In this document: one piece after another, positions 25,262 to 56,868 of the stretch
How the letters are laid out: every line of letters starts with the position of its first letter
Position numbering within the stretch: position 1 is the first letter of the stretch
The notes under the pieces: generated by a model
Databases searched by the model: none
Told to the model about the DNA's origin: nothing
The model's input: only the letters and a program-made list of their open reading frames with translations
Program-made: the position numbers and the translations under genes
Assembly (NCBI RefSeq): GCF_041909575.1
Contig: NZ_JAYRDE010000004.1
Coordinates: forward strand, 2,748 to 66,747
DNA: 64,000 nt
Direction: 5' to 3'
From: Microbacterium sp.
Lineage (GTDB): Bacteria > Actinomycetota > Actinomycetes > Actinomycetales > Microbacteriaceae

Positions 25262-25361
25262 GGCGCATAACTCCTGCACTCTGCTCGCCCGGCGCCCCTT
25301 CCTCGGCGGAATTCCGCGAAGCCGCACCGTGTCGACCGCGATTCTGCAGGAGTTATGCGCC
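25262..25361. repeat. REP/MITE-like inverted-repeat element (AACTCC family)
   Basis: GGCGCATAACTCCTGCA / TGCAGGAGTTATGCGCC perfect 17-bp arms with a 66-bp spacer. Confidence 0.9.
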
Positions 25362-25410
25362 GCACGCGAGACGGAGCCCTGCCCCGCGGGCGCGCCCGGC
25401 CCCGCCCGAG

Positions 25411-26592
25411 CTAGACCCGGGCGCCGTCCTTCCACACCGTCCGCACGAGGGGCACGCCGGGCCGGTAGGCCAGGTGCACGCGCGTGGGCGCGGCCAGCAG
25501 CACGAGGTCGGCGCGCATGCCCGGAGCGATCGCGCCGACGTCGTCGCGACGCAGGGCCCGGGCGCCGCCGGCGGTCGCCGCCCACACCGCCTCGGCCGGC
25601 GTCATGCCCATCTCCCGCACCGCGAGCGCGACCATGAGAGGCATCGAGCTCGTGAAGCTCGATCCGGGGTTGCAGTCGCTCGCGAGGGCGACCGTGACGC
25701 CCGCGTCGATCAGCCGCCGCGCGTCGGGGTACGGCTGCCGCGTGGAGAACTCCACTCCCGGGAGGAGCGTCGCCACCGTCTCGGACTCCGCGAGGGCGGC
25801 GATGTCGGCGTCGTCGAGGTAGGTGCAGTGATCGACGGATGCCGCGCCCGCCGCGACCGCGAGGCGCACGCCTTCTCCGGGGCCGAGCTGGTTGCCGTGC
25901 ACCCTCGGCAGCAGTCCGTGGGCCGCTCCGGCCGTCAGGATCCGGCGCGACTCGTCCGGCGTGAACGCCCCGCGCTCGCAGAACACGTCGATCCAGCGCG
26001 CGTGCGGGCGCACGGCCTCGAGCATCGGGCCGGTGACGAGATCCACGTACTCCTCGCGCCGGTCGGCGTACTCGGCCGGCACGACATGCGCGCCGAGGAA
26101 CGTGACCTCCGAAGTGACCTCCGCGGCGAGACGGGCGAGGCGGGTCTCGTCCTCGACGGTGAGGCCGTAGCCGGTCTTGATCTCGAAGGTCGTCGTCCCC
26201 TGAGCGTGCAGCTCGGCGGTGAAACCCGCCAGCCGCGCGCGAAGCTCCTCGTCGCTGGCGGCACGCGTGGCCGCGACGGTGCGGCGTATGCCTCCCGCGG
26301 CATAGGGCGCGCCGGTCGTGCGCGCCTCGAACTCGTCGGCCCGGTCCCCGCCGAACACGAGGTGCGTGTGGCTGTCGACGAACCCCGGGAGCACCGCCTC
26401 GCCGTGGGCGTCGACGATCTCCGCCCCGGAGCGAGCGGCGGCTTGTGCCGGGGCATCCGTCATCCCGCCGACCCAGGCGATCCGCGATCCCTCGAGGAGC
26501 ACCGCGGCGCCGTGCATCGTGCCGCACGGGTCGCCGTCGCGCGCGACGTTGGTGGTCAGCTCGCCGATGTTCGTGATGAGCGTCGCGGTCAC
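25411..26592 (-). CDS. hutI: Imidazolonepropionase
   Basis: [34 protein letters not shown]; start GTG 26592. Confidence 0.95.
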
Positions 26593-26621
26593 GGTTGCCT
26601 CCTCTCGGTACGGGGTCTGCG

Positions 26622-28298
26622 TCAGTCGTCCAGCATCGGGACCTGCAGGCCGCGCTCGCGCGCGACCTCCTTGGCCCGGTCGTACCCGGCGTCGACGTGG
26701 CGCATGACGCCGGTTCCGGGGTCGTTCGTCAGCACGCGCGCGAGCTTCTCGGCGGCCAGTGGCGTCCCGTCGGCGACCGTGACCTGCCCGGCGTGGATCG
26801 AGCGTCCGATGCCGACGCCGCCGCCGTGGTGGATCGACACCCACGCCGCGCCCGAGGCGGTGTTGAGGAGGGCGTTGAGCAGCGGCCAGTCGGCGATCGC
26901 GTCCGAACCGTCCGCCATCGCCTCGGTCTCGCGGTACGGCGAGGCGACCGACCCCGCATCGAGGTGGTCCCGGCCGATCACGATGGGACCGGCGAGCTCG
27001 CCGGACGCCACCATCTCGTTGAACTTCAGCCCGGCGAGGTGGCGCTCCTGGTAGCCGAGCCAGCAGATGCGCGCCGGCAGCCCCTCGAAGTGCACGGCCT
27101 CGCCGGCCTTGTCGAGCCAGCGCACGAGCCCCGCGTTGTCGGGGAAGAGCGCCTTGACGGCCTCGTCGGTCTTGCGGATGTCCTCCGGGTCACCCGAGAG
27201 CGCCACCCACCGGAACGGTCCGCGGCCCTCGGCGAACTGCGGCCGGATATACGCCGGCACGAATCCGGGGAATGCGAAGGCCCGCTCGAACCCGCCCAGC
27301 TGCGCCTCGGCGCGGATCGAGTTGCCGTAGTCGAACACCTCGGCTCCGGCATCCTGGAATCCGACCATCGCCGCCACGTGCTTGGCCATGCTCCCTCGCG
27401 CGCGGGCGGTGAAGCCTTCGGGATCGCGGGATGCCTCGGCCCTCCAGTCCTCGAAGGCTATCCCCACCGGCAGGTAGGCGAGGGGGTCGTGCGCGCTCGT
27501 CTGGTCGGTCACGATGTCGACCTCGAGCTCTCCGGCCCGGTGGCGCAGGAGCAGGTCGCCGAACACCTCGGCGGCGTTGCCGACGACGCCGACCGAGAGG
27601 GCCTCGCCCGCGGCCTTCGCGGCGGCGACGCGGGCCACGGCGGCTTCGAGGTCGGTCGTGTACTCGTCGAGGTAGCCGTGCTCCACGCGGCGCGCGAGGC
27701 GGGACTCGTCGACGTCGACGATGAGCACCGCGCCGCCGTTGAGCGTGACGGCCAGCGGCTGCGCGCCGCCCATGCCGCCGGCGCCGCCGGTGAGCGTGAG
27801 CGTGCCCGAGAGGTCCTCGCGCCCGAGAGACCGCGCCACGGCGGCGAATGTCTCGTACGTGCCCTGGAGGATTCCCTGCGTGCCGATGTAGATCCACGAC
27901 CCGGCCGTCATCTGCCCGTACATCGTCAGGCCGAGCGCCTCGAGCCTGCGGAACTCCGGCCACGTCGCCCAGTCGCCCACGAGGTTCGAGTTCGCGATGA
28001 GCACCCGCGGCGCCCACTCGTGCGTGCGGAAGACGCCGACGGGCTTGCCCGACTGCACCAGCAGCGTCTCGTCGGGCTCGAGCTCGTCGAGGGTGCGCAC
28101 GATCGCGTCGTAGGCCTCCCAGCTGCGGGCGGCCTTGCCGGTCCCGCCGTACACGACGAGGTCCTCGGGGTGCTCGGCGACCTCGGGGTCGAGGTTGTTC
28201 ATGAGCATGCGCTTGGCGGCCTCGGCGCCCCAGCTCTTCGCGGTGCGCTCGGGTCCGCGCGGCGCGCGGACGGTGCGGGCGGTCTCTGTGGCGGTCAT
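26622..28298 (-). CDS. hutU: Urocanate hydratase
   Basis: [50 protein letters not shown]; start ATG 28298. Confidence 0.97.
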
Positions 28299-28355
28299 CG
28301 TCACTCCTTCGTGGTCGTGCCGGGGGTGGTGGACGGGCGGCGGACCGTTCCCGCA

Positions 28356-28422
28356 ATCAGGCGATTCGACGGAATCAGGCTCATGTCGGTCGGATCCGCC
28401 TGATCTCACCGGATCGCCTGAT
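28356..28422. repeat. Nested inverted repeat with 18-bp periodic ATCAGGC motif
   Basis: ATCAGGC at 28356 and 28374; GCCTGAT at 28398 and 28416. Confidence 0.75.
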
Positions 28423-55326: not shown

Positions 55327-55923
55327 ATGTCCGACGCGATCGCCGATGCGAAGCGCGCCCTGCGCGCGGAGCTCCGCGAGCGTCGGCAGCTGCTGACGCC
55401 GCACCAGCGCGAACTCGCCGCCGACGGCATCCGCTCCCAGCTCGACGCCCTGGTCGACCGGCTCGGCGTGACCTCGATGTCGTGCTTCCTCTCGACGACG
55501 ACCGAGCCGGGAACGCGCGAATTCGTAGCGGCGGCGGTGGAGCGCGGCATCCGCGTGCTCCTGCCGGTCACCCGCACGGACGGCCTGCTGGACTGGTCGG
55601 TCGCGACGCGCGACCTCGACATCGCCGAGGGCATGTTCGGCCTGCCTGAGCCCGTCGGCGAGCTCATCGGACCGATCGCCGTCAACGACGTCGACCTGCT
55701 CGTGATCCCGGCGGCCGCCGTCGACCGCAGCGGCATGCGCCTGGGCTGGGGCCGCGGCTACTTCGACAAGACGATCGGCTCGATGCACCGCTGCCCGCCC
55801 GTGTACGCGGTGGTCTTCGACTCCGAAGTGCTCGACGAGGTGCCCAGCGACGTGCACGACCAGCCCGTCACGGGCGCCGTCACCCCCACGCAGACCCTGG
55901 TCCTCGCGCCCGCCCGGCGCTGA
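55327..55923 (+). CDS. 5-formyltetrahydrofolate cyclo-ligase
   Basis: KRALR, EPGT, IPAAAVDRSG.RLGWGRGYFD, HDQPV. Confidence 0.93.
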   Translation: MSDAIADAKRALRAELRERRQLLTPHQRELAADGIRSQLDALVDRLGVTSMSCFLSTTTEPGTREFVAAAVERGIRVLLPVTRTDGLLDWSVATRDLDIAEGMFGLPEPVGELIGPIAVNDVDLLVIPAAAVDRSGMRLGWGRGYFDKTIGSMHRCPPVYAVVFDSEVLDEVPSDVHDQPVTGAVTPTQTLVLAPARR

Positions 55924-55940
55924 CAGCCCCTGAGAGAGAC

Positions 55941-56240
55941 ATGCCCACCTACGCCTACGCCTGCAAGCAGTGCGGCCACCGCTTCGACGCCGTGCAGTCC
56001 TTCGCCGACCCCACCCTCACCGAGTGCCCCGAATGCGGCGGACCGCTGCGCAAGGAGTACGGCTCGATCGGCGTGACCTTCAACGGCTCGGGCTTCTACC
56101 GCACCGACTCGCGCGCGTCGGGTTCGGGCGGCGGGACGGATGCCTCGGCTGGCGCCTCCTCGTCGGGTTCGGCATCATCGAAGTCCGAGGCGAAGCCGGC
56201 GGCGTCCTCCGCGAAGCCGGCGGCCTCGTCCGGGTCCTGA
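55941..56240 (+). CDS. FmdB-family zinc-ribbon protein
   Basis: MPTYAYACKQC...CPECGG, FNGSGFYRTDSR. Confidence 0.92.
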   Translation: MPTYAYACKQCGHRFDAVQSFADPTLTECPECGGPLRKEYGSIGVTFNGSGFYRTDSRASGSGGGTDASAGASSSGSASSKSEAKPAASSAKPAASSGS

Positions 56241-56293
56241 CCGGCGGGGCCGGGTCCACACCGGCGGAAGCCGGCGACAGTGAGGAGCAGCAC

Positions 56294-56707
56294 GTGATCA
56301 GAGGCTTCAAGGAGTTCATCCTCCGCGGCAACGTCATCGACCTGGCCGTCGCGGTGGTCATCGGCGCGGCGTTCACGGCGGTCGTCAATTCGATCGTCGC
56401 GAGCATCATCAATCCGCTCATCGAACTCTTCTGGAAGCCCGACGCGAACGGGAAGATCGGCTTCACCGTGGAGGGCCTGTGGGGCCCGGTCACCTTCCCG
56501 ATCAGCGACCTGATCAACGCGATCATCGCGTTCCTCGCGGTGGCCGTGGTGGTCTACTTCGTATTCGTCTACCCGATGAACCGGATCAAGGAGCGCGCCG
56601 CCGCCAAGGCCGGCGTCTCCCCCGCCGACGAGGAGCCGAAGCTCCCCACCGAGCAGGAACTGCTCGTGCAGATCCGCGACCTGCTCGCCGCCCAGCCGAA
56701 GGCCTGA
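56294..56707 (+). CDS. mscL: Large-conductance mechanosensitive channel
   Basis: GFKEFILRGNVIDLAVAVVIG.AF; LL.QIRDLL; RBS GAGGAG. Confidence 0.95.
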   Translation: MIRGFKEFILRGNVIDLAVAVVIGAAFTAVVNSIVASIINPLIELFWKPDANGKIGFTVEGLWGPVTFPISDLINAIIAFLAVAVVVYFVFVYPMNRIKERAAAKAGVSPADEEPKLPTEQELLVQIRDLLAAQPKA

Positions 56708-56768
56708 TCCCGCCGGGCCGCGCGGTGCGCGCGATGCGCGCCGTGCTGCGCCGTTCTTCCCGCCCTGC

Positions 56769-56868
56769 GGCGCAGAACTCCTGCAGATTGCCCGCGGCCG
56801 GCGGTCGCGGCCGCGGAATCCCGGGGCGCGGGGCCTGACGGCCCGCGAAAGTGCAGGAGTTATGCGCC
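56769..56868. repeat. AACTCC-family inverted-repeat element
   Basis: GGCGCAGAACTCCTGCA / TGCAGGAGTTATGCGCC; 66-bp spacer; same length and central motif as the 25262 copy, in opposite orientation. Confidence 0.9.

Follow-up and report, generated by a model that had tools for sequence, protein, structure and literature searches.

Here, we analysed a family of short inverted-repeat elements in a 64-kb stretch of DNA from Microbacterium sp. (contig NZ_JAYRDE010000004.1, positions 2,748 to 66,747; henceforth, the window), together with a gene, denoted X, that in other genomes is bracketed by elements of this family. The window, with 71.6% G+C, contains two canonical copies of the element, A and D, two diverged variants, namely, copy C and a fifth copy, and one doubtful remnant, copy B (Table 1). 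Copy A lies between a plus-strand open reading frame (ORF) labelled sixA, which ends before a tandem array, and a minus-strand amidohydrolase (hutI-like) gene with the stop codon at 25411; the neighbours of copies A and D were also checked by Pfam, with a MscL match beside D. Copies A to D had been reported in the first-pass annotation of this DNA, and all four were found where it had placed them; also in agreement with that annotation, no transposase was detected in the 64-kb window.

Table 1. Copies of the element and the adjoining tandem array in the window
Feature	Position	Strand	Details
7-bp tandem array GCTCCTG, ~11.7 copies	25177-25257		ends 4 nt from copy A
Copy A, canonical	25262-25361		100 bp; AACTCC at 25269, GGAGTT end at 25354
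Fifth copy, variant	47133-47248		37-nt imperfect arms 47133-47169 and 47212-47248
Copy B, doubtful or decayed	52194-52282		adjoins tRNA-Ala (tRNA 52057-52129, minus)
Copy C, diverged subfamily member	52316-52427		24-nt arms, 88% complementary; 86-nt span 52329-52414
Copy D, canonical	56769-56868	+	100 bp; 86-nt span 56776-56861; mscL stop codon (56707) 62 nt upstream

The canonical copies share 17-nt arms, GGCGCA(T/G)AACTCCTGCA / TGCAGGAGTTATGCGCC, separated by a 66-nt spacer in which CGG(A/G)ATTCCGCG occupies offset 29-40 in both A and D, on opposite strands. These features, as well as the common length of 100 bp and the opposite orientation, had been described from the sequence beforehand and were all confirmed. 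The pairing of the arms in D includes one G.A mismatch, and A read on the plus strand and D read on the minus strand agree in the asymmetry of the inner arm (TGCACTyT against AwTCTGCA), as well as in a few bases outside the palindrome. Measured between outer edges, the span from AACTCC to GGAGTT is exactly 86 nt in copies A, C, and D. Because the window contains just 14 AACTCC and 19 GGAGTT words, we estimate that only ~0.004 pairs would be expected at any one exact spacing, against the 3 observed.

A covariance model was built from 75 copies from other genomes and window copies A and D, so that the scores of A (minus strand, 67.4 bits; plus strand, 63.8 bits) and D (plus strand, 69.2 bits; minus strand, 61.6 bits) are partly circular. 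The match to copy C, with the arms CCGACGCCTGCAGAACTCCACGGA / TCCGTGGAGTTCCGCAGACGCCGG and the centre word GCTTCCGCGG, scores 25.7 bits (E 1.4e-5). The fifth copy is matched at 47145-47236 (20.2 bits, E 5.8e-4); its arm core, GCACAACGTCGGCA / TGCCGACGTTGTGC, is changed on both sides relative to the canonical arms, that is, in a covarying manner, and its centre is CCCGGAATCC. Copies A, C, and D fold far better than shuffled sequences (z of -4.5 to -6.9; A, -6.2; D, about -6). Copy B scores 14.2 bits (E 0.036) and folds no better than shuffles (z of about -1.2); because it is 12 nt shorter and ends in GGAGTA on the right, it is at best a decayed copy. Thus, of the two copies that had been taken for family variants near tRNA-Ala, C stands, given its score, span, and fold, whereas B can be retained only as a possible remnant. 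A perfect hairpin with 17-bp arms at window positions 3895-3970 (word GATTCCG) was also considered and is not a member of the family because, even with the filters off, it shows no similarity to the family model at E <= 10.

Scanning of a genome collection with the strict arm pattern AACTCCTGCA-N60-72-TGCAGGAGTT yielded at least 116 loci. Among the matches listed, all but three come from Microbacteriaceae or from unclassified actinobacterial metagenome-assembled genomes (MAGs), the three chance matches being from Bacteroidaceae, Chitinophagaceae, and Burkholderiales; the genera represented are Cryobacterium, Salinibacterium, Leifsonia, Frigoribacterium, Glaciibacter, Glaciihabitans, Humibacter, Rhodoglobus, Lacisediminihabitans, Galbitalea, and Microbacterium, with up to 6 strict-pattern loci per genome. 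Thus, the family is widespread beyond the window, contrary to what would be expected of a few ordinary terminators at fixed positions with no other copies. The AACTCC-to-GGAGTT span is 84, 85, or 86 nt in 125 of 139 copies. According to crude GC3-based gene calls, 107 of the 112 copies with both neighbours called are intergenic, located between convergent (45), tandem (51), or divergent (11) genes, with 5 called as 'inside'; the elements therefore favour the 3' ends of genes. Their orientation relative to the upstream gene is weakly biased (18 same, 10 opposite), many copies being too symmetric to orient, and the flanking sequence is rich in C on the left and in G on the right. Elements repeated in tandem with a period of 140-190 nt, as doublets or arrays, were detected in loci L069, L033, L116, L044, L061, L111, L121, and L203.

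The family consensus can be written as GCATAACTCCTGCAAWTT - ~22 variable - CCCGGAAWCACGCGG - ~22 variable - AAATTGCAGGAGTTATGC; in the window, the arms are GGCGCATAACTCCTGCA, and the central palindrome is CGGAATTCCG, as opposed to CCCGGAAWCACGCGG family-wide. In a position-wise symmetry test, complementarity of the arms rises above the cross-copy control only from -7 to +13 around AACTCC, which corresponds to a stem of approximately 20 bp, and pairing within the spacer is at the control level. The outer six stem positions change together (GTGCAT/ATGCAC, GTCGAT/ATCGAC, GTTGAT/ATCAAC, GTGGCT/AGCCAC). The centre is a small palindrome, which often continues into GGATGCC at one side or GGCATCC at the other. 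We considered and rejected the possibility of one long, RNA-like hairpin running through the whole element: RNAalifold keeps the outer stem only, and interior pairing does not exceed the control. With an unpaired interior and conserved arms and centre, the element is thus a nested palindrome with two spacers of ~20 nt that are free in sequence but fixed in length. In 20 syntenic pairs, identity is 91% in the arms (81% outside the bases forced by the pattern), 71% in the centre, 56% in the spacers, and 49% in the immediate flanks.

The site of copy A, between sixA and hutI, also contains elements in three Microbacterium-like relatives: one in L022 and two each in L111 and L116. Some of the sites, this one included, are thus shared with related genera, so that the family is in part old and inherited vertically. 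The number of copies at a single site varies between genomes, and at several syntenic sites, one species has the element and another apparently lacks it, the exact junctions being obscured by divergence of the DNA around them.

Pairs of elements located approximately 1.1 kb apart enclose an ORF of ~295 aa, X. Among ~113 loci selected by the element, X is present in 11, with an element on both sides in 11 of 11; wherever the strict pattern missed the second flanking copy, it was found by the covariance model. Among four isolate genomes (L117/L118 being one of them), L121 has canonical elements on both sides of X, L119 and L122 have variant arms, GTGGCTAACTCAGGAGAT, on both sides, and L117 and L118 have these variant arms on the upstream side of X only. 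A scan of metagenomes with the X alignment produced 80 loci with 38-86% identity, and their flanks were searched for inverted repeats of any sequence with a span of 84-116 and at least 14 matches among 16 arm positions. An inverted repeat was found in 57 of 76 testable upstream flanks and 58 of 69 testable downstream flanks, whereas none of 183 other 420-nt windows from these loci and none of 76 shuffled flanks gave a match. In most cases, a gap of 63-130 nt separates the end of the upstream element from the start codon of X, and the downstream element begins no more than ~120 nt after the stop; where their orientation is readable, the two are direct. Most X loci that seemingly lack the element carry short forms of ~70 bp, CATAACTCAGGCAGAA...TCTGCCTGAGTTATG, on both sides, in place of the usual form of ~97 bp. 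These forms belong to one X clade, so that element length is a property of the clade; examples are L196:1805-1873 and 2901-2970, as well as L195, L172, and L182. In Microbacterium, X is flanked by GGCGCATAACTCCTGCACTTTGG, the same arm variant as in window copies A and D. No transposase was found between or beside the copies in ~200 loci. The first-pass annotation had proposed that the fixed length, conserved ends, and conserved centre of the elements imply recognition by a trans-acting protein, and that copies flanking a nuclease gene, with DUF559 among those named, should be sought. The length constancy (84-86 nt) and the bracketing of a DUF559/MTES_1575-type nuclease gene with an AbiEi-like region support this proposal.

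The arms of the elements vary in concert with X. Following the conserved A(C/T)TC, the arms fall into the classes CTGCA, AGGAG/AGGAA, AGGCAG, AGGCTG, CGGATG, AGTCTC, ATGC, and CTGAG, and across these classes, the distance from A(C/T)TC to GA(A/G)T is 82-84 nt. Both flanks of one X gene carry the same arm class, and the classes cluster on the X tree, with 22 changes compared to a mean of 55 after shuffling and none of 200 shuffles as low. Within a genome, the variant of the outer arm is common to the X-flanking and dispersed copies: all copies in MAG MFD02832.bin.2.33 have CGAT, the Microbacterium group that includes the window has GGCGCA(T/C), and in Salinibacterium CAN_S4, where sampling covered dispersed copies only, 4 of 4 copies have GTTCAT or a close variant. 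In C. fucosi (L054:4099), there is a dispersed copy of the second arm class.

The Pfam matches of X are AbiEi_4, REase_MTES_1575, and DUF559 (31.5 bits, cut-off 20.6), with no others, and NCBIfam has no model for it. PADLOC returned only weak, domain-level AbiEi and Hhe matches, so that X is not a known defence system. In the source annotations, it appears as 'endonuclease domain-containing', 'DUF559', or 'very-short-patch-repair endonuclease'. An AlphaFold2 model obtained from 47 sequences has a mean predicted local distance difference test score (pLDDT) of 93. In Foldseek comparisons, residues 1 to ~200 resemble the whole AbiEi antitoxin 6y8q (E 6e-5), and the C-terminal ~95 aa resemble the catalytic domain of I-Bth0305I (3r3p, TM 0.80), Vsr (1cw0), and the DUF559 protein 3hrl, the last of which was also matched in a PDB profile search with X. 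Residues D222, E232, D234, and H239 are invariant in the 47 sequences. Thus, X is predicted to consist of an AbiEi-like winged-helix DNA-binding module fused to a PD-(D/E)XK nuclease of the Vsr/DUF559 fold. In no locus does an AbiEii nucleotidyltransferase gene lie beside X, the neighbours being ribD, glpK, HAD, rplQ, and GNAT genes; assignment of X to the AbiE type IV toxin-antitoxin systems, to which the AbiEi fold and the weak profile matches pointed, was accordingly rejected for the loci examined.

Most X loci occupy one of three slots, with synteny extending across genera: ribD/(glpF glpK) - X - HAD hydrolase - class-I tRNA synthetase; ribD - X2 - sorC/glpD; and, in the Microbacterium clade, rpoA - rplQ - X - GNAT acetyltransferase. 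Where copies can be counted, X is present in one or two. In Microbacterium sp. ARD31 (L205:2794-4114), X is inverted between its two flanking elements with respect to the rplQ and GNAT neighbours, as is apparent from comparison with L203 and L204; inversion mediated by the flanking repeats would produce such an arrangement. In Cryobacterium, two paralogous X units that differ in arm class apparently enclose the glycerol genes (those for a sorC-type regulator, glpD, glpF, and glpK); this organization is pieced together from L117 and L118 (ribD - X2 - sorC glpD) and L121, L099, and L107 (glpF glpK - X1 - HAD). Genomes that lack glp genes at this position (L016, L100) have a single X between ribD and HAD, and recombination at the X units may have led to the gain or loss of the glp block. 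In a relative of the window organism, MAG MFD01275.bin.2.121 (L063:2237-3119, minus), a frameshift near 2743-2750 divides X into two overlapping ORFs, so that X is a pseudogene there or the long-read assembly contains an error; in the same locus, the GNAT ORF downstream has a possible TTG start inside the element arm (TTGCAGGAGTTGTGC).

We interpret these observations, namely, the anatomy and distribution of the elements, the constraint on them, and their association and co-variation with X, as those of REPIN-like sites that are probably recognized by X, a dedicated, near single-copy, vertically inherited predicted nuclease. Under this interpretation, the AbiEi-like module of X would bind the arms, and perhaps also the centre, either as duplex DNA or as the stem of a hairpin, given that the arm duplex would have an identical sequence in linear DNA and in the snapped-back form. 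The nuclease domain would then cut at or near the element, and cutting would drive the copying, turnover, or homogenisation of the dispersed copies. Over time, copies are gained, lost, and tandemly duplicated, with the arms and the centre under constraint and with the dispersed copies residing in short intergenic regions, mostly behind the 3' ends of genes. In the source genome, the cognate X would be expected elsewhere than in the window, probably in the slot flanked by rplQ and a GNAT acetyltransferase gene. More tentatively, near single-copy, vertically inherited nucleases that combine the AbiEi winged helix with the Vsr fold (DUF559) might be the partners of an unrecognised class of REPIN-like repeats in Actinomycetota, maintaining, homogenising, and spreading nested palindromes of ~100 bp (or ~70 bp) by non-HUH chemistry, with each nuclease clade co-evolving with arms of its own.

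Several results weigh against this interpretation. The 64-kb window contains no homologue of X, and contigs of the source metagenome align to the X gene of a relative in pieces of only 37-58 nt, over the conserved nuclease motif. No further copy of the element occurs in 77 kb of control windows (flanks of X of up to 2 kb, from metagenomes). Because most X loci derive from a few ancestral slots, the independent origins of the association are fewer than the locus counts imply. We found no direct-repeat signal of a target-site duplication at offsets 0-13 and lengths 2-9, beyond the conserved ends of the element itself, and no base-exact empty site among the syntenic occupied and unoccupied pairs compared; therefore, transposition is not demonstrated. 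The spacers are almost wholly different between copies of one genome, which argues against recent copying bursts. Furthermore, a hydrolytic PD-(D/E)XK nuclease has no obvious route to cut and rejoin DNA in the manner of HUH transposases, and this chemistry, together with the missing target-site duplications and the unrelated spacers, calls for caution with regard to simple transposition. The sequencing runs that contain the window sequence are metagenome DNA only, and no RNA run with the Cryobacterium X locus was found. Thus, of the initial description of the elements as a REP-like or non-autonomous mobile family, the repeat family is borne out, with its at least 116 loci in Microbacteriaceae, but mobility is not; likewise, the search for empty sites in relatives that had been recommended did reveal syntenic pairs of occupied and unoccupied sites, but the intergenic DNA is too diverged for a base-exact junction, and the recommended search for target-site duplications failed to reveal any.

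Some of the same evidence would fit static sites. In this scenario, the elements are operators or architectural sites: X is mainly a DNA-binding regulator or a chromosome-structuring protein that controls its own gene through the upstream element, similar to AbiEi with the inverted repeats of its promoter, and the dispersed copies form its regulon or serve as topological or termination sites, with none of them moving. The N-terminal 200 residues of X indeed have the fold of an autoregulatory antitoxin, AbiEi, and in most loci, the upstream element is regularly placed at 63-130 nt from the X start; orthologous sites in different species retain the arms and the centre, several genera share some of the sites, that of copy A among them, target-site duplications were not found, and the fixed spacing of 84-86 bp suits the geometry of a protein on duplex DNA. 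However, the invariant nuclease residues would be superfluous for a pure regulator, the element is also present downstream of the X stop codon (58 of 69 flanks), and the dispersed copies lie mostly behind gene 3' ends, with just 11 in divergent promoter regions. In addition, turnover is apparent from the tandem duplications and the presence/absence differences, and the arm variants change in concert within genomes. Hence, purely static sites appear unlikely.

Another alternative is that element-X-element is itself a mobile unit, comparable to an insertion sequence (IS) with hairpin ends of ~100 bp, the solo elements being leftovers of recombination, similar to solo long terminal repeats, or end-only derivatives, similar to the palindrome-associated elements derived from IS200/IS605. 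The bracketing of X by two complete elements, direct where readable, would be accounted for in this way, as would the element doublets without X that are 140-190 nt apart (L116, L033, L044, L069), the inversion of X within its slot in L205, which is expected from recombination between flanking palindromes, and the presence of X in at least three to five genomic contexts. We nevertheless regard such a unit as improbable: X is syntenic over genus-level distances, with one or two copies where countable, whereas the elements occupy well above 100 different contexts; truncated remnants of X were not found beside solo elements, either in the 183 control windows or in other loci; and target-site duplications are, again, missing. 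Finally, the elements might be ordinary ones (hairpins of 3' untranslated regions or terminators, small RNAs, or miniature inverted-repeat transposable elements (MITEs) of a transposase encoded elsewhere), with an incidental link to X. Strong stems of ~20 bp with a fold z of about -6, enrichment behind the 3' ends of genes, the intergenic location, and the weak orientation bias relative to the upstream gene (18 same, 10 opposite) are all in keeping with this view. Yet, Rfam gives no match to the elements at gathering or E-value thresholds, the stem is followed by a G-rich right flank rather than a T-run, and the 60-nt interior lacks conserved pairing. A terminator cannot explain exact arm words shared across genera or the conserved centre, no transposase lies between or beside the copies in ~200 loci, and the association with X is far beyond chance and co-varies with the X phylogeny. 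This explanation is, accordingly, very improbable.

The interpretation of the elements as REPIN-like sites of X invites comparison with REPIN/RAYT systems, which are known mainly from Proteobacteria. In both cases, an extragenic element of ~100 bp has two conserved inverted arms, with lower conservation in the spacer, repeats flank the partner gene, which occurs in one or few copies and is vertically inherited and syntenic, the partner clade co-varies with the repeat variant, and dispersed copies are kept at orthologous sites. Unlike in the REPIN/RAYT systems of Pseudomonas and Enterobacteria, the partner here is not an IS200/IS605-type HUH tyrosine transposase, and no HUH transposase was seen in any locus. 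Moreover, the arms are not short REP palindromes with a GTAG-type head, the length of the element is strictly fixed and its central palindrome is conserved, the copies on either side of X are, where readable, direct rather than inverted, the hosts are Actinomycetota, and the copy number appears to be modest. In the literature searched, we found no prior description of a pairing between DUF559 proteins and repeats, nor of REPINs in Actinobacteria, and the arm words retrieved only unrelated shRNA and primer matches.

With MITEs and the Correia and ERIC elements, the family shares small size, intergenic, non-coding, and dispersed occurrence, sometimes in tandem or nested, and inverted arms, of 17-24 bp in this case. 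It differs from MITEs in the lack of target-site duplications and in that no parent IS with the same ends was found, X being flanked by whole elements rather than single arms; furthermore, copies of one genome with unrelated interiors but fixed length are the reverse of a recently transposed MITE family. The similarity to AbiEi antitoxins of type IV toxin-antitoxin systems lies in the fold of the N-terminal ~200 residues of X. AbiEi proteins bind inverted repeats upstream of their own gene. Unlike the genes of AbiEi systems, however, X has no AbiEii neighbour and encodes a nuclease domain, and its repeats are also found downstream of X and elsewhere in the genome. At the C-terminus, the predicted fold and the conserved acidic and histidine residues are those of Vsr/DUF559 nucleases and I-Bth0305I, the latter being an example of how the same fold can serve a selfish, site-specific nuclease. 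X differs from I-Bth0305I in that it is not located in an intron or intein and in that, instead of a single allelic site, it presumably targets dispersed palindromes, and from Vsr in that it does not lie beside a cytosine methyltransferase.

Other known classes of elements were considered and rejected. Similar to the element, integron attC sites are imperfect palindromes of comparable size with conserved ends and a variable middle, and by inspection, the ends GCATAAC...GTTATGC agree with RYYYAAC...GTTRRRY at 6 of 7 positions on each side. However, there is no integrase or cassette array in ~200 loci, the copies lie among housekeeping genes, and they have a fixed length and a conserved centre. 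An intrinsic terminator is incompatible with a stem that encloses ~60 nt and a right flank that is G-rich rather than T-rich. With respect to known RNA families, Rfam identified only tRNA in the window at the gathering score and gave no match at E <= 1 in three multi-copy loci, so that the element was matched in neither.

If the link between X and the elements is functional, it would offer a testable role for DUF559-type proteins, which are currently labelled 'endonuclease domain-containing' or, wrongly, 'very-short-patch-repair endonuclease', and would provide a second, independent system in which the coexistence of repeats and hosts could be studied. The elements would then represent sequence-defined hairpin sites, adjoined by unstable minisatellites, with a possible influence on termination, recombination, and inversion in the genomes of Microbacteriaceae. 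More broadly, if the interpretation is true, a large family of 'DUF559 / endonuclease domain-containing' proteins would gain a function, and the host-repeat relationship of the REPIN/RAYT type would extend to a second, independent enzyme family and a second phylum.

The tandem array next to copy A has counterparts elsewhere, short-period arrays being enriched beside elements of the family. In a survey of ~916 kb with Tandem Repeats Finder (period 4-15), 23 of 61 intergenic arrays lie no more than 60 nt from an element, ~20 of them outside the element proper, and this zone makes up ~5% of the intergenic DNA. Arrays adjoin elements at L015:7191-7306, L033:821-983, L069:5042-5155, L067:7062-7142 and 7315-7378, L092:5015-5065 and 5213-5261, and L119:3400-3440; their periods range from 5 to 14, with up to 20 copies, and the unit sequence differs between loci. 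Such arrays suggest local instability of the DNA, through slippage or repair, at the borders of the elements. The outer arm was also compared by eye with the DnaA box (TTATGCAC against TTWTNCACA), a reading that was set aside, the ninth base usually not being A and GCGC being present in half of the copies. Together with its flank, the outer arm often reads GTTATGCAC(A/G), one or two bases off the DnaA-box consensus, for instance, at L014:1631-1731. True TTATCCACA boxes occur near elements at L054:4200-4260 and L072:5440-5460, probably by coincidence.

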